Shown: piece after piece, positions 13,526 through 60,811 of the stretch
Layout of the letters: each line of letters opens with the position of its first letter
Numbering within the stretch: position 1 is the stretch's first letter
IMG/VR virus record: IMGVR_UViG_3300030380_006811
Coordinates: 32,001-96,000 of that record
DNA from: a virus
Length of the DNA: 64,000 nucleotides
Direction: 5' to 3' (one strand)
Translations under genes and position numbers: made by a program
Notes under the pieces: generated by a model
Seen by the model: only the letters and a program-made list of their open reading frames with translations
What the model was told of the DNA's origin: nothing
The model's database searches: none

Positions 13526-14026
13526 ATGTTTAAAGTACATCTTAGTAAAAAAGCTATACAAAAAAGACTAGACGAGAACTACCAAAAACTAAATTATAAT
13601 CAGTTTAGGTGGTGGCGTTGGTATGAATCACGAAATAAATCATTACCATATAAGTCTAGTTTTAGGGATAAAATACTAAATGGTGATTATGATACTTCAC
13701 CCTATATGCTTCAGTCACAGTTGTGTGAGCATATGTTGAATGAATTATTAGAAGAATGTGATTCTGATTATCAAAAATATTTAGAAAAAGGTAAGTTATT
13801 AATAGCTCGAAGAAAAAGATTATTAGAGGATTATGAAAAGGATGAATTTAATAAACTAGAGGAAATTTATTCCCAATTTCAAAAAAATTTTGATATTACT
13901 AGAGAACAAGTAGAGGAAGAAGCTATAGAATGCCGTGATGGTCTAATAGATCTTTATTATATTATAGAAGAAAAATATAGAAAAAAACATTATGTCTCCA
14001 AAAGGGGGCGTCCAAGAAAAATATGA
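13526..14026 (+). CDS. Hypothetical protein with C-terminal AT-hook-like RGRPR
   Basis: ATG 13526 preferred to TTG 13469; ends KRGRPRKI. Confidence 0.65.
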   Translation: MFKVHLSKKAIQKRLDENYQKLNYNQFRWWRWYESRNKSLPYKSSFRDKILNGDYDTSPYMLQSQLCEHMLNELLEECDSDYQKYLEKGKLLIARRKRLLEDYEKDEFNKLEEIYSQFQKNFDITREQVEEEAIECRDGLIDLYYIIEEKYRKKHYVSKRGRPRKI

Positions 14027-14829
14027 AAGTAAGTCACGAAGTACCTAGTTGTTTATTAACCGCATCCCCTGAATTTAATGATTACGATTATTGTCTTCCC
14101 CATTTATTAGATCAAGATGAGGATTATTTACAATATTTTAGGAATGCTAAAGAAGCTGGTCGTTATATTATTATGGATAATTCGCTTCACGAATTAGGTA
14201 AAGCATACAACCATAAAAGATTATTACATTGGATTACAGAATTAGAACCAAATGAATTTATAGTACCAGATGTTTGGATGAAATGTTCCCAAACTGCGGC
14301 TCAAGCAAAATATTGGTTGCAGTACAAATACCCTAAAAACACTAAAATAACAGCCGTAATTCAGGGTGAAAATAAAAATCAAGCTTATTTATGTGCTAAT
14401 TTATTAGCTAATTTGGGTTATAGTAAATTATGTGTATCTTATGGTGCTACTTGGTATAATGATTTCTTCCCACACACTAACCCAGATATGGGAAAAGCAT
14501 TAGGTAGAGTACGATTTGTACAGGGATTACTAAATTTAAAACAATTAAAAGATATTAAGTTTCATTTACTAGGTTGTTCAATACCACAAGAATTTGGTTG
14601 GTATGATAATGATCCTAGAATTGAATCAATTGATACTTCAAATCCAATTATGGCTGCTTTAGAAGGTACTTTGTATTCTGAACATGGTTTAAATAGTAAA
14701 CCGAAAGCAAACATGAATGATCATTTTAATATGGATTGGGAAGATATCGAATATGAAAGTATTTTACACAACACAACATTATTTAGAGAAATTAATAATA
14801 TTAAAAAGAGAGATATATGGCCAAATTAA
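14023..14829 (+). CDS. dpdA: TGT-fold DNA guanine transglycosylase (DpdA-like)
   Basis: IIMDNS, IVPDV, AVIQG, FHLLG, SIDTS motifs of the TGT/DpdA fold; next to queC/D/E and folE. Confidence 0.72.
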   Translation: MKVSHEVPSCLLTASPEFNDYDYCLPHLLDQDEDYLQYFRNAKEAGRYIIMDNSLHELGKAYNHKRLLHWITELEPNEFIVPDVWMKCSQTAAQAKYWLQYKYPKNTKITAVIQGENKNQAYLCANLLANLGYSKLCVSYGATWYNDFFPHTNPDMGKALGRVRFVQGLLNLKQLKDIKFHLLGCSIPQEFGWYDNDPRIESIDTSNPIMAALEGTLYSEHGLNSKPKANMNDHFNMDWEDIEYESILHNTTLFREINNIKKRDIWPN

Positions 14830-15017
14830 CAAGAAATGTAAATTATTGTAATTATAGATGGGAAGAATATGTGCTAACAGAAGAAGAATTAGCACAGTGG
14901 AAAACAGGTGATGAAGATCTTCAACAAGAAATCATAGATAATGCAGATTGGGACCTAGTAAGAGATAAACCAATTGATGATTATAGTGACGTAGAATTTG
15001 TAGACGACGAAGAATAA
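14817..15017 (+). CDS. Small acidic hypothetical protein
   Basis: ORF track; coupled to neighbours. Confidence 0.6.
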   Translation: MAKLTRNVNYCNYRWEEYVLTEEELAQWKTGDEDLQQEIIDNADWDLVRDKPIDDYSDVEFVDDEE

Positions 15018-15181
15018 TGAAAATACCTTTAGATTTATATTATTGGACAGCAACAGTCAACCATGAAGTATGGTTAATTGATGCAGCTACAGAAAAAGAA
15101 GCTTACGAGAAAATAGAGCTTGAAGAACCTGGAGCTGATATAGAAAATTTAGTTAAAACAAACATAATAAAAGTCATATAA
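15017..15181 (+). CDS. Small hypothetical protein (54 aa, not in track)
   Basis: TAATG coupling; MKIPLDLYYW...KVI. Confidence 0.55.
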   Translation: MKIPLDLYYWTATVNHEVWLIDAATEKEAYEKIELEEPGADIENLVKTNIIKVI

Positions 15182-15182
15182 T

Positions 15183-15380
15183 ATGGTAGAAGCAGTAAAA
15201 CATGCATTAGGATTTTGTGGTGAACATTGGCACCCAAATCTTTGGACTCTTTTAATAGGAGGGTTTGGAATTGGTACTATTTATTCGTATATTAAATTAT
15301 ATTTTAAGTGTAAACTTAAACAAATAAAAACAGCGTTTGCCTATACGCTTAATAATACCTGGCAAAAATTTAAATTATAA
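15183..15380 (+). CDS. Small membrane protein
   Basis: HALGFCGEHWHPN motif plus a TM. Confidence 0.55.
   Translation: MVEAVKHALGFCGEHWHPNLWTLLIGGFGIGTIYSYIKLYFKCKLKQIKTAFAYTLNNTWQKFKL
15264..15293 (+). promoter_or_regulatory. Early-type promoter upstream of queC
   Basis: TTTGG-N17-CGTATATT exact match inside the upstream ORF. Confidence 0.65.
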
Positions 15381-15384
15381 TAAC

Positions 15385-16179
15385 ATGGCAAAACATTGTG
15401 TAGTTTCGTTAAGTGGTGGAATGGATAGCAGCACCCTATTGTTAAGAGCTATCAACGAATATGATACTGTAACAGGTATCTCATTTGACTATGGTCAAAA
15501 ACACAGAGTAGAATTAGAAAGAGCTCAATCGTTAATTAATTATCTAGCAGATAATGGTCATAAAGTAAATTATAGACAAATTAAACTAGATGGATTAGTA
15601 GATTTATTAGATTCAGCATTAACTGAAGGAGGTAAAGATGTACCTGAAGGTCATTATGAGCAAGATAATATGAAGGAAACAGTTGTACCTAATAGAAATA
15701 AAATGTTTGCTTCTATAGTTCAAGCAGTAGCATTATCTGTAGCTAATAAAACAGGAGAGACTTGTGATATTGCCTTAGGTATTCATGCAGGTGATCATGC
15801 TGTTTATCCTGATTGTAGACAAGAATTTAGAGATGCAGATGATGCTGCTTTTAGAATTGGAAATTGGGATGCTGATAGAGTAGGTTATTTTACTCCATAT
15901 TTAGATACAGATAAATTTGGTATATTACAAAATGGAGAAATTTTATGTGCAAAACTAAAAATTGATTTTGATGATGTCTATTCTAGAACTAATACTAGTT
16001 ATAAGCCTTTTCCTAGTGGGAACAGTGATTATAAATCTGCTTCATCTGTTGAGAGGATTGAGGCGTTTATTGCTTTGGGTAGGAAAGATCCTGTGCAGTA
16101 TGAAGATGAAACTGGTCCTGTGGATTGGGAAATTGCAAAATCAAGTGTTGAAGAAGTTTTAGCTGAACACTCAGCTTAA
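15385..16179 (+). CDS. queC: 7-cyano-7-deazaguanine synthase
   Basis: SLSGGMDSST, FDYGQKH, VPNRN, HAGD..YPDCR; ATG 15385. Confidence 0.92.
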   Translation: MAKHCVVSLSGGMDSSTLLLRAINEYDTVTGISFDYGQKHRVELERAQSLINYLADNGHKVNYRQIKLDGLVDLLDSALTEGGKDVPEGHYEQDNMKETVVPNRNKMFASIVQAVALSVANKTGETCDIALGIHAGDHAVYPDCRQEFRDADDAAFRIGNWDADRVGYFTPYLDTDKFGILQNGEILCAKLKIDFDDVYSRTNTSYKPFPSGNSDYKSASSVERIEAFIALGRKDPVQYEDETGPVDWEIAKSSVEEVLAEHSA

Positions 16180-16184
16180 AAATA

Positions 16185-16296
16185 TGCCCCGTGGAGCAGT
16201 AGGTAGCTCGCTTTGGCTTAACTCGGCGCAAAATAAATACGATCGTGAAAAGCAAAGAGGTCAAGGAGGTCGCAGGTTCGAGTCCTGTCGGGGTCA
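16185..16296 (+). tRNA. tRNA-like gene (fMet-like body) with 39-nt insertion in the anticodon loop
   Basis: Acceptor TGCCCCG/CGGGGTC, D arm GAGC-AGTAGGTA-GCTC, AC stem CTTTG/CAAGG, T arm GCAGG-TTCGAGT-CCTGT; 46 nt between the AC stem halves; no CCA. Confidence 0.75.
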
Positions 16297-16310
16297 GCAA
16301 AATTAAGTAT

Positions 16311-16508
16311 ATGGAAGATTTTAATAATATTGAAAAAGATAGAAAAAACTTAGAACACATGCCTGATCAGAGGTTACATCAGGTTATTAGTTTTATTAAA
16401 TCAGGAATTAGAATAGTTGGATATGGACTTTTACTATATAACGTGCCAATTGCAGTAGGAGTTCTTATATTAAGTGAAGCAATTGGTATAATTGAAGAAT
16501 TAGTATAA
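16311..16508 (+). CDS. Small membrane protein
   Basis: ATG 16311; SFIKSGIRI...AEAIGIIEELV-type motif. Confidence 0.6.
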   Translation: MEDFNNIEKDRKNLEHMPDQRLHQVISFIKSGIRIVGYGLLLYNVPIAVGVLILSEAIGIIEELV

Positions 16509-16756
16509 TGAAGAAAATTTTATATTTTAGTGCTCCTTGGTGTGGTCCTTGTCAAATGCTAGGTCCAACTATGGATTCTGTAGCCAATGAAGTAAATTTT
16601 ACTAAAATTAACGTAGATGAAGACACAAATACCTCAGTTAAATATGGTATTCGTAATGTTCCTACTCTAGTTTTAGTAGATAAAAGTGGTAAAGAAATTA
16701 ATAGATTAATAGGAAATGTTTCCAAACAACAAGTAATAGATTTTTATAATGGGTAA
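16508..16756 (+). CDS. trxA: Thioredoxin
   Basis: WCGPC active site. Confidence 0.9.
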   Translation: MKKILYFSAPWCGPCQMLGPTMDSVANEVNFTKINVDEDTNTSVKYGIRNVPTLVLVDKSGKEINRLIGNVSKQQVIDFYNG

Positions 16757-17213
16757 ATTTCAATCAAGTAAAGTATTTGACGGATTTAGTACAGTGTTTC
16801 GTCAATGGAAGGCAACAACAACACACTGTAGATTTGTTCATGGTTATGGAATTTCATTTAAAGTTTATTTTGAAGGAGAACTAGATGACAGAAATTGGGT
16901 TTGGGACTTTGGAGGAATGAAAAGAGCTAAAACTAAAATAGATGGTAAGTCTCCTAAAGAATGGATGGATTATATGTTTGATCATACTTTAGTGGTAGCA
17001 GAAGATGATCCTGAAGTAGAAGCATTCAAACAAATGGATACTGCGGGTGTAGCTCAAGTAAGAGTAATACCAGCTACTGGTGCGGAAAAATTTGCTGAAT
17101 ATATTTATACCAAATTAAATAGTTTTGTTAAAGCTGAAACCGATAACAGAGTAAGAGTAACGAGAGTGAAATTTATGGAGCACGGTAAAAACGCAGCAAG
17201 CTATAGTGAATAA
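16749..17213 (+). CDS. queD: 6-carboxy-5,6,7,8-tetrahydropterin synthase
   Basis: HCRFVHGY, WVWDFG, FDHT. Confidence 0.88.
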   Translation: MGKFQSSKVFDGFSTVFRQWKATTTHCRFVHGYGISFKVYFEGELDDRNWVWDFGGMKRAKTKIDGKSPKEWMDYMFDHTLVVAEDDPEVEAFKQMDTAGVAQVRVIPATGAEKFAEYIYTKLNSFVKAETDNRVRVTRVKFMEHGKNAASYSE

Positions 17214-17256
17214 AAGTATAATAGTGAATGAAAAACCACTTTAAAAAATTAACAAT

Positions 17257-18042
17257 ATGCATAAGCAACTAAAAAGGGTTACAGACTACAATAAAAGACT
17301 ACCTATTGTAGAAATATACACAGCAGTACAATCAGAAGGAAGCAGAGCAGGATACCCAACAGTAGTAATTAGAACTACAGGGTGTACTCATAGATGTTAT
17401 TTTGGTGAAGGAGGATGGTGTGATAGTTGGTATACAAGTATTCATGCAGAAAAAGGTAAATTTACCTTTAATGATATTATTGCAATGTATAAAAAGAACC
17501 CCCATATATCAGAAATGATGTTAACTGGAGGTTCACCTACTATGCATGGAGCATTAGTAAACGAATTAACACACTTTGCACATGAAAATAATATATTTAT
17601 TACTATCGAAACTGAGGGAAGTCATTTTCTACCCACAGATTACCCTATTAATTTGCTATCTATTAGCCCTAAGTTTTCTAATTCTATACCAGTATTGGGT
17701 GTAAAAACACCACAAGGTGAAGTTACAACTGAAAAAATGATTAAAACACATAATAGGCTAAGGTGTAATTGGGATGCCATTAAAAAATCCATAGCTTACC
17801 ATTCAGATTTTCATTTAAAACCTGTTTGGGATGGAAAAGATCAAGGGGCATTAGCTGAAATTATGGATGCAATAGCTCAATTAGAAATTAAACCTGAAAA
17901 AGTTTGGTTTATGCCTGCAGGTGATTCAAGAGAAGCATTATTTAAATCTTATCCTGTATTATTTGATTGGGTTAGAGATAATGGATATAGAATGACTTGG
18001 AGGCCTCACATTATTGCTTTTGAAGATCAAAGAGAGGTATAA
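17257..18042 (+). CDS. queE: 7-carboxy-7-deazaguanine synthase (radical SAM)
   Basis: EIY..VQSEG, RTTGCTHRC...WCDS, LTGGSP, IETEG, SISPK. Confidence 0.88.
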   Translation: MHKQLKRVTDYNKRLPIVEIYTAVQSEGSRAGYPTVVIRTTGCTHRCYFGEGGWCDSWYTSIHAEKGKFTFNDIIAMYKKNPHISEMMLTGGSPTMHGALVNELTHFAHENNIFITIETEGSHFLPTDYPINLLSISPKFSNSIPVLGVKTPQGEVTTEKMIKTHNRLRCNWDAIKKSIAYHSDFHLKPVWDGKDQGALAEIMDAIAQLEIKPEKVWFMPAGDSREALFKSYPVLFDWVRDNGYRMTWRPHIIAFEDQREV

Positions 18043-18045
18043 GAG

Positions 18046-18216
18046 ATGTCTAAATGGGATGAAATAAATGAAAAATTAGAATTTATTTATCTTAATACTG
18101 ATAGATGCTGTCAAGATTTATGCGAAGGTCAAGAATGTAAATATAGGGTAGAAGAGATAATGGAGTTATTAGTAGATATAAAACAAAAATATGATAAAGT
18201 TAATTTATGGAAGTGA
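18046..18216 (+). CDS. Small Cys-containing hypothetical protein (not in track)
   Basis: MSKWDEINEK...CCQDLCEGQEC; fills the gap between genes. Confidence 0.45.
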   Translation: MSKWDEINEKLEFIYLNTDRCCQDLCEGQECKYRVEEIMELLVDIKQKYDKVNLWK

Positions 18217-18718
18217 TACAGGTAATACTGAACACGTTATAGATAATATACTATTAACAGAGTTAGAAAATAAGGGTTTTGAAATTAATGTAACTTGCGT
18301 TAATGAAGTAACTGAAGAAGATTGGAATCATAATAAATTTATATTAGGTATTCCTACTTGGTATGATGGTGAATTACAAAGTGATTGGGAAGATTATTTT
18401 GATACCTTTAAAGAAATAGACTTTACAGATAAAACAGTAGCTATATTTGGTTTAGGAGACCAAATTGGCTATGAAGAATGGTTTTGTGATGGTATTGGAA
18501 TATTAGCTGAGGTAGTTCTAAAAAACGGAGGTAAAGTTATTGGTTATACTGAAAACGATGATTCGTATGAATTAGATGAAACCCCTAAGTCTTTAGTTAA
18601 TGAAGATACTTTCTATGGGTTATGTTTAGATGAAGATAATCAAGATGAACTAACTGAAGAGAGAATAGAAAATTGGGTTGATAAATTAAAAAAAGAATAT
18701 TATATTAACAATAAATAA
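18191..18718 (+). CDS. fldA: Flavodoxin (long chain)
   Basis: YGSDTGNTE, GIPTW..GELQ.DW, FGLGDQ, GLCLDEDNQ. Confidence 0.92.
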   Translation: MIKLIYGSDTGNTEHVIDNILLTELENKGFEINVTCVNEVTEEDWNHNKFILGIPTWYDGELQSDWEDYFDTFKEIDFTDKTVAIFGLGDQIGYEEWFCDGIGILAEVVLKNGGKVIGYTENDDSYELDETPKSLVNEDTFYGLCLDEDNQDELTEERIENWVDKLKKEYYINNK

Positions 18719-18729
18719 AAGTTATATAC

Positions 18730-19425
18730 ATGGAGAATAAACGTAGAAAAAACCACACAGACTTAGAGGTGGTGCAAGAAGGATTTGCAAATGGTGTTGC
18801 CCCCGGCTTTCCTTTTACGGATAAACAAAAACAAAAAATGATTAATAATGCAGAAAAAGCTTATGGAAAGTTTTTAGATGCATTAAAATGTGATTGGAGA
18901 AATGATCCCAATTCAATGGAAACACCTCGACGAGTAGCTAAAGCTTATGTTAATGATTTATGGGCTGGTAGATACACAGCAATGTCTCCTATTACATCAT
19001 TCCCATCAGATGGTTATGATGGTATTGTTATTGAACGTAATATACCATTAACTTCAATGTGTTCTCACCACCACCAAACAATTGGGGGAGTTGTTCATAT
19101 TGGTTATATAGCAGGAGAAGGTGGACAAGTAATTGGATTATCTAAATTAAATAGAATTGTAGAATTATTTGGTAGAAGAGGAGCAATTCAAGAACAACTT
19201 ACATCAGCTATACATAATGCTGTAGATAAAATTACAGATGGAAATAAAGGTGTAATTGTTACTATTGTAGGAACTCATAATTGTGTAAGTTGTAGAGGAG
19301 TTAAACATCAAGGAGCAGCAATGGTTACAACAAAAGCATCAGGTGTATTTAGAAAAAATGAAAATTTAGCTCGTAAAGAGTTTTTTGATAGTTTAAAAAT
19401 TAATAATGGTGGACACAATATTTAA
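18730..19425 (+). CDS. folE: GTP cyclohydrolase I
   Basis: ETPRRVAK, SMCSHH, GLSKLNR, IQEQLT, HNCVSCRG. Confidence 0.93.
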   Translation: MENKRRKNHTDLEVVQEGFANGVAPGFPFTDKQKQKMINNAEKAYGKFLDALKCDWRNDPNSMETPRRVAKAYVNDLWAGRYTAMSPITSFPSDGYDGIVIERNIPLTSMCSHHHQTIGGVVHIGYIAGEGGQVIGLSKLNRIVELFGRRGAIQEQLTSAIHNAVDKITDGNKGVIVTIVGTHNCVSCRGVKHQGAAMVTTKASGVFRKNENLARKEFFDSLKINNGGHNI

Positions 19426-19428
19426 GTT

Positions 19429-19983
19429 ATGTTAAAAATAGAAGAGAAAAAAATAAAAGTTAGTTGGGATGATGTTGAGGAAGCAGTAAAAAAATTATGT
19501 GATATTATCAAACCTGAAATAGATAATGTTTCCTCTATACATGGAATATCTAGAGGTGGGTTAATTCCTGCTGTTATGGTTTCACATAGATTAGGCCTTC
19601 CTTATGTAGATGTTCCTATTAAAAATACAATGGTAATAGATGATATTTGTGATAGTGGAGTTACATTAAGAGATTATAAAGCAACTTGGAAAGGAGCTTT
19701 ATGGTTTAAACCTAATACCTCATGTTTTACCCCAACTTGTTGGGCAGAAGAACATTTAGGAGATGAGTGGTTAATTTTTCCTTGGGAAAAGTCCAACTCA
19801 GAACCAATTCAGGATTATCTAAAAACAAAGGAATTTAAGGAATTTGCTGAAAATGAAGACAATTCTGTGGTTTGGCCCGAAGAAGATAGTAAATTACACA
19901 CTGTAGGAGGTTTAACTAACGATAAAGAAGGTTCTTTTATGGAATTTTTAAATAAAATTGATAAAAAAAATAAAAATGGGTAA
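19429..19983 (+). CDS. Purine phosphoribosyltransferase (Gpt-like)
   Basis: GISRGGLIPA, VIDDICDSGVT PRPP loop, WLIFPWE. Confidence 0.85.
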   Translation: MLKIEEKKIKVSWDDVEEAVKKLCDIIKPEIDNVSSIHGISRGGLIPAVMVSHRLGLPYVDVPIKNTMVIDDICDSGVTLRDYKATWKGALWFKPNTSCFTPTCWAEEHLGDEWLIFPWEKSNSEPIQDYLKTKEFKEFAENEDNSVVWPEEDSKLHTVGGLTNDKEGSFMEFLNKIDKKNKNG

Positions 19984-55762: not shown

Positions 55763-56047
55763 ATGTATACAGTAAGAGAATTAGATTTAAGCATGGTAAA
55801 CGAATTAAAGCAATTCGAGGGTAAGATATTTAGTGATAATTCAAGCAACACCGGTAGTAGCCTGTGTTTGAAAGTTGACCGTAATGAAGGTAGGGTATAT
55901 TACCAGGAATGCTATAGTGAATATGCTAATTTCAACGGTAAAAATCGTGACGGTGCTCCTCGCACCGATAAACTATACCACCCAACACCTGGATTAAATA
56001 CAATGACGTTAAGCCAATTCTACGGTTGCGCTATAGGTTGGGTATAA
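55763..56047 (+). CDS. Hypothetical early protein
   Basis: AAAGGTT-ATG at 55763. Confidence 0.65.
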   Translation: MYTVRELDLSMVNELKQFEGKIFSDNSSNTGSSLCLKVDRNEGRVYYQECYSEYANFNGKNRDGAPRTDKLYHPTPGLNTMTLSQFYGCAIGWV

Positions 56048-56421
56048 ATTAATTAATACAAACATATTACTTACCACCATGGTACTCCTTACCGCGGTGG
56101 TACTTCCCTACGTATACCTTACTACATACTGGATATATACTTAATATTATAATTACGCCGGTATACCGCCATATATATACATACATAATCCCATACGCGT
56201 TGGTGTCCATATATGCGTGTATACGCAAAGAAAGGGTGTAGCACAATTTATGGCTCGTACACGATTTTACACATCGGATTGTATATACTTATATTTGTGT
56301 ACCTATGTAAATTAAGAGAATTGTCAATATGGCTATTAGACACGCCATTACTAGACTAACACTAGCCATTAACTTTATTATTAGACCTAATTGTTTTCTA
56401 TTTTTCATATTATAATATTAT

Positions 56422-56445
56422 AGACCCCCCGAAGGGGGTCTTTTT
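56422..56445 (+). terminator. Rho-independent terminator
   Basis: AGACCCCC-cgaa-GGGGGTCT then TTTT. Confidence 0.8.
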
Positions 56446-56528
56446 CCATTTAACGCCAAAATTTAGAAAATAGTAAAATGGCAACCTTCTTTTTTCAAAA
56501 CCTTTTTGGCGTCGAGGAAAATATATAC

Positions 56529-57143
56529 TTATCTATACCAACCTTTTTCGGTAGCTAGTTCTACGGGTATATAGTGTCCAAAACTACACATTAATCTATT
56601 TCTGTCACCGTCAATTCTGGATGACCCATGTTCATATAACCCAGCTAATACTACCCAAGGTTCATTCTCTTCCACATATATTTCTTCACCATCATTTATA
56701 GGATTACCTCCACTTTCAGGTTTTTGGATTTGGATATTAAATCTACAGTGAATTTTATCTTTAATTTGGTATATGTCGTCTACTTTTTCGTATTTTGATT
56801 CATCAGGACCATCAGCACATACATTAGGGTCTTTATGCATATGAGTAGAATGACCCTTATAAAATGATGCTAACATAAATCCATAATTATCATCAATAGG
56901 TAAATCCAGTGGTATGTCGAATGTTTTAAGTATTATATTTCTTAATTCAAAAAACTCATCAAATGGAAAACCACCATCAATTAAATCTTGAGGTTTTAAA
57001 TCAACATTAGGCCTTGCTATAACCCTTCCCCCCTCATGTGGAGGTTCTAATGTTAAATACTTTTCTAGATTTTCTTCTACCGACATCCATTTTAATATAG
57101 CTTCGGTATACTTTTTATCTATTATAACCCCACTTCTCATCAA
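56529..57143 (-). CDS. 2OG-Fe(II) oxygenase-like protein
   Basis: HKD...RFN..IQKP..GG.P...H.S......R...SFG. Confidence 0.75.
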   Translation of the reverse strand: MMRSGVIIDKKYTEAILKWMSVEENLEKYLTLEPPHEGGRVIARPNVDLKPQDLIDGGFPFDEFFELRNIILKTFDIPLDLPIDDNYGFMLASFYKGHSTHMHKDPNVCADGPDESKYEKVDDIYQIKDKIHCRFNIQIQKPESGGNPINDGEEIYVEENEPWVVLAGLYEHGSSRIDGDRNRLMCSFGHYIPVELATEKGWYR

Positions 57144-57547
57144 TATCTATTATTAAAATTAGGATCTTCCTTCAATGCCCTAATCATCCCCTGTGTATTT
57201 TGTATCTCGTTATGAAGTTTTTTTATCTCCGCTTCCGTTAAATCTATAAACTGATTTGTCCTCTGTTGATATCCAATAAATGCCCCCTTATTATTTTCAA
57301 TCCTTTTTCCTAAATCCGTTATTTCAATATAAGAGTCCTTTTCCATCTTCTCCTTCACATCTCGTATATATAAATTCAGCTCATCTAATTTTTCTACGTT
57401 CTCCCCATACCTAATAGAGGAGATATTTGATGATGATTGTAGCGACGTCAGTAATTCATTATATTTAATTTTCACCGAACGTAAGTATACCGCACTGTAA
57501 ACCGCTATCACCGTAATAATCCCACTAATAAAATATATCAATTCCAT
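57140..57547 (-). CDS. TM-anchored coiled-coil protein
   Basis: N-terminal TM plus heptads. Confidence 0.65.
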   Translation of the reverse strand: MELIYFISGIITVIAVYSAVYLRSVKIKYNELLTSLQSSSNISSIRYGENVEKLDELNLYIRDVKEKMEKDSYIEITDLGKRIENNKGAFIGYQQRTNQFIDLTEAEIKKLHNEIQNTQGMIRALKEDPNFNNRY

Positions 57548-57550
57548 AAT

Positions 57551-57868
57551 TTACAAATATTCATCGTTAATAATTTTCTCTATATCAAACCAAAGAGTAT
57601 TATAATCAACTGTTGCCTTATAATATCCTTTTTCAAATAACACTATTGTTGGGTAGTGTGTTATTGGTTTTGGATATAATTGTGTCGATCTTGGAAACAT
57701 TGGTGCCTCTATATAAACCATAGGTAATAGATCACTTACGTTTTTTAACATTGGTTTTAGATTAACACAAGTTTTACAACCTCTAGAACCAAAAATTACT
57801 AATAATTTAGGTGCTGTAATAAAATTAGAGAGATTATCCCTTGTTAGTTCAATAAAACTTTTACTCAT
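57551..57868 (-). CDS. Thioredoxin-like protein
   Basis: CKTC, YPTIVLF..G. Confidence 0.7.
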   Translation of the reverse strand: MSKSFIELTRDNLSNFITAPKLLVIFGSRGCKTCVNLKPMLKNVSDLLPMVYIEAPMFPRSTQLYPKPITHYPTIVLFEKGYYKATVDYNTLWFDIEKIINDEYL

Positions 57869-57874
57869 GTAGAC

Positions 57875-57904
57875 AATATACGATTCTGTATTGGTTTTTC
57901 CACA
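57875..57904 (-). promoter_or_regulatory. Early-type promoter for the minus-strand operon
   Basis: Reverse strand TGTGG-N17-CGTATATT, 6 nt before the ATG. Confidence 0.75.
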
Positions 57905-58028
57905 TAATTTTATAAAATATCTTATAATATACTGTATATACGTATTTATAGATTGAATATTGTAAAAGAGAGTAAGTTTTTAGGACTTTTTATATATTTA
58001 TAATAAAACAAATATAATTCAATAAACC

Positions 58029-59018
58029 ATGGTAAACACTCACTTAGTAACTTGGCAAGAATTTCTAAAAGAGAAGGAAAATAAAAACCTTCCTATTATG
58101 GAAGCCAAAGCAAAATATTTAAAACTTCAAAGAAAGTTTAATTTACTTATGGAGGCCGAAGTTGCTGCTTACAATGCTGTGGCTTTGAATTCTGTAACAC
58201 ATGGATCCCAAGGTGGTGATCCTTCCTTAGTCAACCCAATTAAAAACATCTTTTTCTCGGATATTCCAACTAAAATAGAGGATGGTAATGATCCTGTAGC
58301 AATAACTTTAGTATTTCAATATCCTGTATTAGTTACTGGTAATCCTGCTATTAAAATTGCAAATGGACAGCAAGGTGGAGGAACTGAAAATAATATAGTA
58401 TTAGCATATGATAGTGGAACTGGTACTGATACACTTGTATTTAATTCTACTCAAGTTTCTGCCAATGTAGATGGTGATCAACCAATTGGAGCAGGAAAAT
58501 TATTAGTAGGACAAGATATAGCTAGTATTGTAGTACAAGGAATTACTGGTATTAATGCAGCAGGTACAACAACTGGTGTTTCTGGGGTAGCAGCAGCAGC
58601 TGGAGGTGGTGCAGGAACAGCTCAACAAGATGTTGTATTAACAATTGTTAATGATGTTGCTGGTAACTTTGATTCAGCTACAATTACTTCTATTGCAAGT
58701 ACTTCTACTGCTTATTATAATGTAGGTGATACAATTACTGTTGCAGCTTCTGAATTATCAGCAGTTGGTGGATCAGGTGGATCTGCAGTATTTACTATTA
58801 CAAATGCTACTTTAACAGGTGATACTTTAGGAATACCTAGAGGTATTGAAATTGTAGAAAACCCAGGAACAGTATCATCCCCATCACTTGGAACAATTGC
58901 TTTTGATGCCACTAATTTTATTACCCTTCAATCTGGTGAAAAAATAGGATATGAAAATTATATGACATATTCTAACGCTATAGTAGGAGGTAATGTTAAT
59001 GCAGAAGCCGACGGATAA
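58029..59018 (+). CDS. Gly/Thr/Ala-rich beta protein, probable virion component
   Basis: V.VTG.P...Y.SGTGT..LVF Ig-like motif, Y.VGDTIT; ATATTTAT upstream. Confidence 0.6.
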   Translation: MVNTHLVTWQEFLKEKENKNLPIMEAKAKYLKLQRKFNLLMEAEVAAYNAVALNSVTHGSQGGDPSLVNPIKNIFFSDIPTKIEDGNDPVAITLVFQYPVLVTGNPAIKIANGQQGGGTENNIVLAYDSGTGTDTLVFNSTQVSANVDGDQPIGAGKLLVGQDIASIVVQGITGINAAGTTTGVSGVAAAAGGGAGTAQQDVVLTIVNDVAGNFDSATITSIASTSTAYYNVGDTITVAASELSAVGGSGGSAVFTITNATLTGDTLGIPRGIEIVENPGTVSSPSLGTIAFDATNFITLQSGEKIGYENYMTYSNAIVGGNVNAEADG

Positions 59019-59040
59019 TAGATAATATTTAAATAAATTA

Positions 59041-59070
59041 AAGGGATAAACGTTAGTTTATCCTTTTTTT
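59041..59070 (+). terminator. Rho-independent terminator
   Basis: AAGGGATAAAC-gtta-GTTTATCCTTT plus T run. Confidence 0.8.
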
Positions 59071-59093
59071 TATATTTATAATAAAATACTATT

Positions 59094-59474
59094 ATGGCAC
59101 AAATTTACGATTCAGCAGAATTAAGTGGGGCAGGAACTTTATTAAAAGATAATCTGCCTGTAGGGGTAAATAAATTTCTGTTTGACACTAGATTTAATGA
59201 AGGTACTGTTTATTTTATTTTTGAGACAGTTAGAAATAATGATGGTTTTTATGATTCTAGTTCTTCTACTAATGCCAGTGGTCTTGTACGTATTGATCTC
59301 CCACCTGTGGGGGCAACATTAGTTCCTATTGATCTTATTCAATCTGATTATATTTGGGGTGTTGTATTACCACCTGGAGGAACTGTTGGGTTAACATTTA
59401 TCCCAACAACACAAGTTGATGCTGGGGCAGTATTTTTAAGAGGTACCGGTGAGGTTACATTAACAATTTCTTGA
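59094..59474 (+). CDS. Beta-rich hypothetical protein (possibly structural)
   Basis: ATATTTAT upstream; composition. Confidence 0.55.
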   Translation: MAQIYDSAELSGAGTLLKDNLPVGVNKFLFDTRFNEGTVYFIFETVRNNDGFYDSSSSTNASGLVRIDLPPVGATLVPIDLIQSDYIWGVVLPPGGTVGLTFIPTTQVDAGAVFLRGTGEVTLTIS

Positions 59475-59492
59475 TAATTTCCTGCGCATCTA

Positions 59493-59522
59493 TTTGGCTA
59501 CCCAGGAAACGGTTCGTATATT
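59493..59522 (+). promoter_or_regulatory. Early-type promoter
   Basis: TTTGG-N17-CGTATATT. Confidence 0.8.
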
Positions 59523-59549
59523 TACCCCATATTAATAATAATAAAGGTT

Positions 59550-59840
59550 ATGTCAAATTTAAACGAAGTGTTAGCATTCATTAAAAATGCAAATAGATCC
59601 GAATTAAAAGAAATTTATAATGCTTATGCAATTGGAATGTCAGTTGTAAGACACGAGCAAAAAGAATCATTTAAAATTGGTGATATTGTTAAAATTAATC
59701 ATAAAACGGTTAATGATAATGATAGATTTAGAGTAATTAAAATTATGTCTAAAAATATTAAAGTAGTAAAAACTAATGTTCCTGAAGGTCGTATTGCAGG
59801 AGAAATTAGAGTTTCACCAGGTTTATTAGAAGTTGCCTAA
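59550..59840 (+). CDS. Small SH3/KOW-like protein
   Basis: FKIGDIV...VIKI..KNIKV...RVSP.LL. Confidence 0.6.
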   Translation: MSNLNEVLAFIKNANRSELKEIYNAYAIGMSVVRHEQKESFKIGDIVKINHKTVNDNDRFRVIKIMSKNIKVVKTNVPEGRIAGEIRVSPGLLEVA

Positions 59841-59858
59841 AAAGTAATGCACAGGGAG

Positions 59859-59888
59859 CTTGGCTACCCAGGCTCCCTTTCGTATATT
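59859..59888 (+). promoter_or_regulatory. Early-type promoter embedded in a terminator-like hairpin
   Basis: CTTGG-N17-CGTATATT; hairpin 59853-59878. Confidence 0.75.
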
Positions 59889-59926
59889 TACCCCATATTA
59901 ATAATTTAAAAATTAAAATAAGAGTT

Positions 59927-60811
59927 ATGTTAGATTTAAGTAAAAGTCAAGAGTTAAGTAAAGATGAGTTAAGAGAGATCGCTCCAAGTATCTTCTCAAC
60001 TAAGCCTTCTCCCGAGGTATCAAAGAAATATTCACATATTCCAACTGATAAGTTAATTGATGATATGAAATTATTAGGTTGGAAAGCTATTGATGCTAAG
60101 GAAGTTAATGCTAGACAAAAAAGTACTAGAGGTTTCCAAAAACACCTTGTAGTATTTAGAAATCCTGATATTGTAATTAATCATAATCCAAATGGTTTAA
60201 CTAAAGATAGTACTTCTCCTACAGGATGGAGAAATTCAGATGGTACTTTCGGTAAGAAAAATAGTGTTGATACTGTTTTTCCACAAATCCTATTAACTAA
60301 TTCACATGATGGTAAAAATGCATTTACCTTTACTGCAGGATTATTTAGAATGATCTGTGAAAATGGTTTAGTTGTTTCTACTAATGAATTTGAAAAAGTA
60401 GCAATTAGACATATGGGGTATGATTTTGATGAATTACAAAAGCAAATTACTGAAATGGTTGAAAAATTACCATTAACTGTAGAATCAATGAATAAAATGA
60501 TTGATACTAAAATGGAGCAAAAAGCAATTGTTGATTTTGCTAAAGATATGCTTGCAGTTAGATTCCCAGAAGAGGAATTAAAAAGAATTACTATTGATAT
60601 GGATGAATTTATTACTCCAGTTAGACCTGAAGATAAAGGGAAAGATTTATGGAGTGTATTTAATGTAATTCAAGAAAAAATCATTGAAGGTGATTTTGAG
60701 TATACAGTAGGTAGTAAGCATAGAAAAGCTAGACAAATTAAAAACTTTAAACAAGATATGGATTTGAATAGTAAAATGTTTGATATTGCACTTGAATACG
60801 TTAATGCTTAA
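59927..60811 (+). CDS. DUF932/DUF945-like protein
   Basis: S.KY..IPT, KH...F, NSHDG, G.FR..C.NGL, LW.VFN.IQE. Confidence 0.82.
   Translation: MLDLSKSQELSKDELREIAPSIFSTKPSPEVSKKYSHIPTDKLIDDMKLLGWKAIDAKEVNARQKSTRGFQKHLVVFRNPDIVINHNPNGLTKDSTSPTGWRNSDGTFGKKNSVDTVFPQILLTNSHDGKNAFTFTAGLFRMICENGLVVSTNEFEKVAIRHMGYDFDELQKQITEMVEKLPLTVESMNKMIDTKMEQKAIVDFAKDMLAVRFPEEELKRITIDMDEFITPVRPEDKGKDLWSVFNVIQEKIIEGDFEYTVGSKHRKARQIKNFKQDMDLNSKMFDIALEYVNA

Follow-up and report, generated by a model that had tools for sequence, protein, structure and literature searches.

A phage gene for a tRNA-shaped RNA with a conserved cargo arm in place of the anticodon loop

RNAs that look like tRNAs have been known for decades in phages T4 and T5 without an assigned function. 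In T5, RNA1 and RNA2 (NC_005859, 30501-30644 and 32959-33083) are annotated as 'tRNA-like stable RNA with unknown functions'. In T4, the phage tRNA cluster ends with the small stable RNAs species 1 (rnaC, 139 nucleotides [nt]) and species 2 (rnaD), whose functions are 'yet unknown' (PMC9697503). In rnaC, an acceptor-like stem closes a canonical T arm. Here we describe a 112-nt element in a 64,000-nt stretch of phage DNA (positions 32,001 to 96,000 of the IMG/VR record IMGVR_UViG_3300030380_006811; hereafter the window) that in our best reading is of the same kind as T5 RNA1 and RNA2 and T4 species 1 RNA. We think it likely that the element is the gene for a non-decoding, tRNA-shaped scaffold RNA that is derived from an initiator tRNA and carries a conserved cargo arm.

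The element shares the architecture of the T5 and T4 RNAs, in that a tRNA-like acceptor and T arm enclose non-tRNA RNA and the gene, in relatives, accompanies tRNA genes of the phage. Like the element, T5 RNA1 and RNA2 are phage-encoded, lie among tRNA genes, and have an acceptor and a T arm with extra folded RNA between them. ARAGORN run with its intron option (ARAGORN -i) treats T5 RNA1 much as it treats the element, calling a tRNA whose anticodon region is interrupted by an insert, of 40 nt in T5 RNA1. However, the body of T5 RNA1 is of the Leu type and includes a long variable arm, that of the element is of the initiator type, and there is no sequence similarity between the element and the T5 RNAs (blastn matched T arms only). 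The T5 RNAs are not known to have a motif like the self-complementary hexamer described below. T4 rnaC also has no sequence similarity to the element and falls below the tRNA model (best score 17.5 bits, to tRNA-Sec, E=0.55), in contrast to the element, which is a full cloverleaf above the cut-off.

Some other RNAs resemble the element in a possible mode of working and not by family membership. In the engineered 'tRNA scaffold', the anticodon arm of a tRNA body is made to carry a cargo RNA, which is then processed and stabilised like a tRNA; in HIV-1 DIS and phi29 pRNA, a palindromic or complementary loop joins RNA copies. Y RNA and YrlA families gave no match at E<=10 and the record has no TROVE domain (Rsr); ARAGORN found no tmRNA, and the sole match to a tmRNA model was sub-threshold, covered the T arm and lay in a relative. 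Lak megaphages of Bacteroidota are reported to have tRNAs with 'enigmatic' short introns that are conserved across cohorts and whose mechanism of removal is unknown (PMC6784885). Those tRNAs are described as otherwise typable and as having anticodons, unlike the element.

A conserved RNA family with a tRNA body

The element was recognized by the tRNA model under permissive settings. In a permissive Rfam scan of 16100-16400, RF00005 aligned end to end at 16185-16296 (plus strand, model positions 1-71) with 33.7 bits (E=1.4e-5); the gathering score is 29 bits. Neither ARAGORN at its default settings nor an Rfam gathering scan reported the element in the whole window. Standard detectors thus miss it, and the match surfaces only with permissive filters or the intron option. 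The latter, suggested as a check in the original prediction, called 'tRNA-Leu(taa) i(37,37)' at identical coordinates. These results bear out the tRNA-like gene that had been proposed, in which 46 nt between the strands of the anticodon stem take the place of a 7-nt loop, leaving 39 extra nt.

Much of the tRNA body was intact (Table 1). The acceptor, D, anticodon and T stems and the conserved D- and T-loop bases of RF00005 were all present, and the particular features predicted earlier (the 1:72 mismatch, the D arm, the variable loop AGGTC and the T arm) were each found. Two properties of a canonical tRNA were missing. There is no 7-nt anticodon loop with U33 and a defined anticodon, position 33 being C, and the 7-bp acceptor stem is not closed: among 30 distinct relatives, pair 1:72 is open in 21 and pair 2:71 in 9. 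Acceptor pairs 3:70 to 7:66 are kept in 29-30 of the 30, with double changes. Adjoining genuine tRNA-Gln and tRNA-Ala genes have 7 perfect acceptor pairs.

Table 1. Positions of the element, its parts and the adjacent gene in the window.
Feature	Position	Strand	Description
QueC gene	15337..16179	+	PF06508, E=1e-36; ends 5 nt before the RNA gene
Whole tRNA-shaped RNA gene	16185..16296	+	112 nt, no encoded CCA; RF00005; same ends by ARAGORN -i
Acceptor stem, 5' strand	16185..16191	+	Pairs with 16289-16295; discriminator A at 16296; U1xC72 mismatch, G2-U71 wobble
D arm	16194..16209	+	GAGC / AGUAGGUA / GCUC; same as the D arm of a Flavobacteriaceae initiator tRNA
7-bp helix, 5' strand	16211..16217	+	Anticodon stem 27-31 and two extra pairs; pairs with 16260-16266
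Conserved 4-nt bulge	16218..16221	+	UUAA
P1, 5' strand	16222..16224	+	CUC; pairs with GAG at 16257-16259; 100% paired
Cargo loop	16225..16256	+	Closure GC/GC or CGC/GUG
Self-complementary site	16239..16246	+	ACGAUCGU; core CGAUCG at 16240-16245; proposed site of RNA-RNA self-pairing
Variable loop and T arm	16267..16288	+	AGGUC; GCAGG / UUCGAGU / CCUGU

The element belongs to a family found in uncultured marine phages. In viral contigs, pattern scans recovered 35 distinct copies, of which 30 have a cargo that we call type A and 5 have type B. A scan of metagenomes, with at least 120 matching stretches, added at least 27 loci with at least 23 distinct family sequences. The family comprises at least 63 distinct copies. 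The same pattern matched 27 times in the genomes of 185,579 bacterial and archaeal species (one genome each), and none of the 27 was a family member, so there is no sign that the element is used as a prophage attachment site. With blastn, a 201-nt region around the element matched 637 of 50,697 phage records by T arms only (at most 22% of the query), and the element was in no phage isolate among these records. The exact 29-nt T-arm pattern had no match in viral contigs. Full-text literature searches and Rfam 15 yielded no description of the family, which is apparently uncatalogued.

The helices of the element covary. In an alignment of the 30 distinct type-A copies, 96.3% of cells were paired in the proposed structure, compared to 79.4% in shuffles; none of 500 shuffles equalled the observed pairing, and slid partners reached 34-54%. 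Both sides had changed in 19 of the 28 pairs, with compensatory changes spread over six helices. The D, anticodon, P1 and T helices were all 100% paired, and three of the four D-stem pairs and three of the five T-stem pairs covaried. The folding energy of the single sequence was ordinary (z = -0.21), and the structural support therefore comes from covariation and not from thermodynamics. Based on this comparison of homologs, which had been named as a check beforehand, we conclude that the element is a conserved RNA family and not a product of decay, as had been argued from its intact arms.

Two other readings of the locus were rejected. An antisense match to HPnc0260 (43.4 bits, below the cut-off of 59) is the reverse complement of the T arm and acceptor and was regarded as an artefact. 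A 40-amino-acid (aa) open reading frame over the gene (16184-16306) lacks its ATG in many relatives, and the 28-32 extra nt of the long forms described below break its frame.

The cargo arm and its self-complementary hexamer

The insert continues the anticodon stem as a 7-bp helix, followed by a bulge, the short helix P1 and a large loop. Every cell of the 7-bp helix is paired, and double changes were seen in five of its seven pairs. A 4-bp extension of the stem had been predicted. Its first half stood, in that pairs 32:38' and 33:x form in 30 of 30 copies, but the next two bases fall in the 4-nt bulge and a covarying 3-bp helix comes after it. The bulge is UUAA in most copies and otherwise UAAA, AUAA or UUAUAA, and in all copies it ends in UAA before a C. 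In P1, two pairs had 13 and 14 double changes among the 30 sequences.

The cargo loop contains the longest invariant run of the element, and there is hardly any variation in the bases of the ~22-nt loop. Two closures are possible, a weak GC/GC (16228-16229 with 16252-16253) and CGC/GUG (16227-16229 with 16245-16247); both closures are almost invariant and covariation therefore cannot choose between them. Long forms of 140-144 nt (18 of the 30) have an extra branch of two helices, in which 92.9% of cells are paired and 3 pairs show double changes, lending the branch modest support. The loop of the inner hairpin of this branch always contains the self-complementary ACGU, and in one locus (L097:9290-9377, minus strand) the tRNA model read the inner hairpin as D-arm-like (17.8 bits, E=0.23). 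No Rfam family matched any cargo at E<=10, a search of the window for complements of the 21-nt cargo core found none even when 3 mismatches were allowed, and readings of the cargo as a kink-turn or a hammerhead, made by eye, were rejected because the defining bases are missing.

Type-B cargo is unrelated to type A in sequence and has the same layout: a bulge, P1, a hairpin and a conserved single-stranded segment. Its P1 is 5-6 bp and covaries. The two types are inserted at the same place of near-identical bodies, for example in the AAAAGGG.../...CCCTTATG lineage, which occurs with either, indicating that cargo has been exchanged between otherwise similar genes.

The hexamer in the cargo loop keeps its symmetry when its bases change. 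It is palindromic in 63 of 63 distinct family copies listed: CGAUCG in 55 and CGUACG in 2 with type-A cargo, CGCGCG in 1 with a divergent A-like cargo (L228), and AUGCAU in 4 and GUGCAC in 1 with type B. Three matches to the search expression were set aside in this count, two being a later run of A in copies that have CGATCG and one an adjacent pair of tRNAs. The variants are related by symmetric double changes and by no others, which is what would be expected if copies of the RNA pair with each other. Judging from these substitutions, the most likely partner of the hexamer is its counterpart in another copy. Within the window, CGATCG is neither avoided nor enriched (2 seen, 3.7 expected). Two further loci (L225 and L227) have a tRNA-shaped gene with a third, unrelated insert of ~80 nt that contains an 8-nt palindrome (TTCTAGAA); this insert may be another cargo type with the same logic.

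Origin and possible role

The close likeness to tRNA-fMet that had been noted was confirmed and extends through most of the body. Compared to an initiator tRNA-fMet of the Flavobacteriaceae type, the D arm, G26, the variable loop AGGUC and the T loop UUCGAGU of the element are identical, and both have a 1x72 mismatch, A11:U24, no encoded CCA and a similar 3' trailer. A11:U24 is present in the window's copy and kept in 22 of 30 family copies. Among 754 distinct tRNAs of the loci that we retrieved, the best match to the 5' half was an initiator-type tRNA-Met of a sister phage (L057), which lies at the same spot after QueC and also has U1xC72; used as a probe, this tRNA-Met led to a Flavobacteriaceae genome and its initiator tRNA. 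Cargo-less phage genes that share the D arm and T loop comprise 19 distinct sequences (30 loci), all with the anticodon CAU and 17 with the loop CUCAUAA. Two loci have an initiator-like tRNA-Met directly before the element, consistent with an origin by duplication. These similarities indicate that the body is derived from a Flavobacteriaceae-type initiator tRNA-fMet.

The element differs from the initiator in parts that serve charging and decoding. The element has no CAU (the remnant of the loop is GCUUAA), no U33, 39 extra nt and different acceptor pairs, and its anticodon stem is CUUUG/CAAGG, whereas host and phage initiators have GGG/CCC or similar (three G:C pairs). The bulge UUAA|C aligns with ...AUAA|C39 of the initiator; by this alignment, the anticodon has been destroyed and the 3' edge of the initiator loop kept. 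The element probably does not decode. An anticodon-less tRNA mimic was one of the possibilities raised in the original prediction, and the initiator-derived body, the conserved and covarying insert, the lack of a consistent anticodon and the degenerate acceptor top all speak for it.

Codon supply is not the reason that phages keep the element. It is the sole match to the tRNA model in the 119,075-bp record to which the window belongs, where there are no ordinary tRNAs, and an element-bearing phage genome of 176.6 kb, estimated to be 100% complete, encodes no more than two ordinary tRNAs. Thus the element does not belong to a set of tRNAs for codon supply and is retained in large phages with almost no ordinary tRNAs.

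We propose that the cargo is the working part of the RNA and that the tRNA body serves as scaffold and processing handle. With its 5-bp acceptor core, D arm, variable loop and T arm, the body would fold into the L-shape of a tRNA, and host tRNA-processing enzymes would be expected to cut the RNA from a same-strand transcript. What charging and codon reading need has been lost, since the RNA has neither the CAU anticodon nor U33, and neither the run of three G:C pairs in the anticodon stem nor a closed top of the acceptor. In place of the anticodon loop, the RNA would present the cargo arm, with its 7-bp helix, the bulge ending in UAA, the 3-bp helix and the loop with the self-complementary hexamer, and the hexamer may join two copies of the RNA, as its symmetric substitutions suggest.

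What the cargo arm works on is more speculative. Our preferred guess, which we hold tentatively, is that the RNA is a candidate decoy or sponge for a host factor, for example an anticodon nuclease like VapC, that recognizes initiator tRNA by its anticodon arm. We take the VapC-type cleavage site to be between positions 38 and 39 of initiator tRNA, at the junction of the anticodon loop and stem. A more specific version, which we consider rather doubtful, is a putative anti-defence decoy made from the host's initiator tRNA, in which a symmetric dimer joined by the palindrome, with a tRNA elbow at each end and, on both copies, a '...UAA|C-helix' mimic of that junction, would trap a dimeric initiator-tRNA nuclease or a tRNA-binding immune sensor; type-A and type-B cargos with their different hexamers could then be specificity variants from an arms race. 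Phage tRNAs have been proposed to act against anticodon nucleases, among them VapC with its target initiator tRNA (PMC10264068), and this proposal makes a decoy role conceivable. If the RNA is a decoy or a self-assembling RNA, it would represent a new class of RNA-based counter-defence and would account for many "intron-containing" or "odd" phage tRNA calls.

The same insert could instead be an intron, with 38-46 nt removed from a tRNA by an endonuclease and a ligase (of host or phage) or by a tiny ribozyme. ARAGORN -i does model an intron-bearing tRNA, the boundary of helix, bulge and helix is faintly like the bulge-helix-bulge motif, and 'enigmatic' short introns are reported in tRNAs of the Lak phages of Bacteroidota (PMC6784885). 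However, a 4-nt bulge is followed here by a 3-bp helix and an internal loop that is asymmetric (1-3 versus 2-3 nt), in contrast to the 3-nt bulge, 4-bp helix and 3-nt bulge of that motif. A group I intron has ~200 nt or more and a P1-P9 core; the insert, at 39-46 nt (up to ~76 nt in relatives), is too short, as had been pointed out, by a factor of about five, and no intron or ribozyme family matched at E<=10. Excision would indeed give the odd loops foreseen earlier: GCUUAAU (anticodon UUA) or, in the ARAGORN register, CUUAAGG (anticodon UAA), with C33 and a Watson-Crick 32:38 pair, and the would-be anticodon varies between copies. A tRNA with the anticodon UUA would be a suppressor of the main stop codon. 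The 96 open reading frames that cover 90.6% of the window in the standard code end with TAA (70), TGA (20) or TAG (6), and with no recoding in the window an ochre suppressor is implausible. The product would also have a Leu identity without a long variable arm and, in most copies, an open acceptor top, and none of the 19 distinct cargo-less genes is an allele with the predicted joined loop. A search of the genome for a splicing endonuclease or RNA ligase, another of the checks named at the outset, found no EndA, RtcB, Rnl2 or Rnl1 gene (PF01974, PF01139, PF09414, PF09511) in the 119-kb record; the EndA profile matched only the 4 archaeal controls, and the result for PF09511 is weak, its control having matched nowhere. 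Finally, RNA-library contigs keep the junction of body and cargo: one contig in each of two metatranscriptome runs of one study crosses it (depths ~1297 and ~1758), and none of the 15 joints listed (of 50) skips the insert. Small differences show these contigs to be a relative's copy, and they are no more than a hint since the assemblies may contain DNA. Based on the lack of a ligase or endonuclease gene in the record and of a cargo-less allele among the 19 genes, the role of TAA as main stop and the junction in RNA-library contigs, the protein-spliced intron put forward in the original prediction is disfavored, and we regard splicing in any form as unlikely.

Two further explanations give the insert no function in an RNA. 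The element could serve purely as a processing signal, with cuts by RNase P and RNase Z parting the queC message from the downstream genes, as tRNA punctuation does in mitochondria. Its position on the strand of queC, just behind the queC stop and with 14 nt left to the following ATG, would suit this, as would the finding that the elements for RNase P recognition are the best conserved and a promoter and terminator scan that found nothing better than in shuffles. Yet cutting needs no cargo, and the invariant run, the covarying helices and the palindrome have all been kept; moreover, the ordinary tRNA arrays of relatives already supply cutting sites. A processing signal alone, as considered earlier, leaves the conserved cargo unexplained and is in our view very unlikely. 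Alternatively, the locus could be a decaying tRNA pseudogene or a site that acts as DNA, such as a palindrome for a dimeric protein or an integration target. The loss of the anticodon and acceptor top, the ordinary folding energy and the fact that short palindromes are classic protein-binding sites are consistent with this. However, the compensatory changes of the six helices are evidence that RNA pairing is under selection, a site bound by a protein would be expected to conserve its letters and not merely their symmetry, none of the 27 pattern matches in cellular genomes was a family member, and the window shows no bias for or against CGATCG. We give this explanation hardly any credence.

Several points weigh against a scaffold RNA with a self-pairing cargo, or against parts of that proposal. 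With only 2 bp, the cargo loop is weakly closed, and the pairing partner is ambiguous. Unrelated inserts at one site of near-identical bodies are also what mobile introns produce, the record searched for splicing genes is by estimate only 73% complete, and host enzymes could splice (RtcB is present in Bacteroides, our search control). Dimerisation is based on just three independent symmetric changes, and RNAcofold does not discriminate, as it also predicts trivial strand-swapped T-arm dimers; its dimer gains of -10 to -12 kcal/mol are mostly such swaps and uninformative, so that we arrive at self-pairing by inference. The RNA runs are assemblies, possibly with DNA, and come from relatives of this phage, and the assembled contigs did not show transcript ends, CCA addition or stable accumulation. 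The decoy role is no more than a guess.

The family is a clean case for study, with a scaffold of traceable origin, a covarying cargo of two exchangeable types and a testable prediction of self-pairing. Annotators should avoid the labels tRNA-Leu or suppressor tRNA for such genes.

Genomic neighbourhood and related loci

The element lies among que genes, as had been noted. QueC is upstream, and thioredoxin, QueD (PTPS), a radical-SAM QueE-like gene, flavodoxin and FolE are downstream; the neighbouring DNA is akin to Flavobacterium phage immuto and Cellulophaga phages. QueC was upstream in 32 of 55 element-bearing loci. Conversely, in a survey of the QueC neighbourhood in the 80 best loci from viral contigs, a homologue of the element was just downstream of QueC in 10, and most other loci had ordinary tRNA-Gln, tRNA-Ala, tRNA-Ser or tRNA-Met genes at that spot. 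In relatives, the element comes directly after tRNA-Gln, tRNA-Ala or tRNA-Met, inside ordinary tRNA arrays. The spot is thus a tRNA hotspot of the phage group, and the que context of the element is probably incidental. This, together with the absence of a G in the bulge, makes the TGT/DpdA ligand that had been suggested unlikely; a preQ1 riboswitch or TGT ligand was likewise rejected, with no Rfam match. Within 2.5 kb of the 55 loci, clusters of open reading frames were syntenic que, thioredoxin and small-membrane-protein genes only, and no partner protein was found among them.

Window positions 14023-19983 hold a preQ0 (7-deazaguanine) cluster with interleaved genes, including a weak phosphoribosyltransferase-like open reading frame. 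A 268-aa open reading frame at 14023-14829 had no Pfam match, and neither did one of 65 aa at 16311-16508, whose C-terminal half is hydrophobic and whose relatives (up to 88 aa) are downstream of the element in 20 of 55 loci.

Gene content around the element varies between related phages. RNA-library contigs of relatives join across 16161-16464 and 16052-16820, skipping 302 and 767 nt, which indicates that some related phages are without the element and neighbouring genes and reflects differences in gene content and not splicing. The RNA runs X17 and X18 had no or next to no cover over 16171-16337, which proves nothing.

Nine loci (L155, L142, L146, L150, L135, L164, L158, L185 and L198) have tRNA genes with 20-80-nt inserts near the anticodon arm. 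They are on unrelated contigs of higher GC and have perfect 7-bp acceptor stems, some with CCA (for example L155). The L155 insert contains a segment like the type-B cargo core around a different palindrome, TGTACA. The genes of this group may be true intron tRNAs or further scaffold RNAs.

Like the element, the tRNA genes of the host and of the phage group have no encoded CCA. C(U/A)A or CUAA tends to follow the discriminator base (16296-16302; L380:1497-1500; cargo-less initiator-like loci) and may be a context for 3' processing.

Elsewhere in the window, the minus strand holds just 3 of the 96 long open reading frames, the region around 54-56.5 kb has several gaps of 300-780 nt without coding sequence, and 56001-60000 is the only stretch in which both GC and AT skew are reversed.

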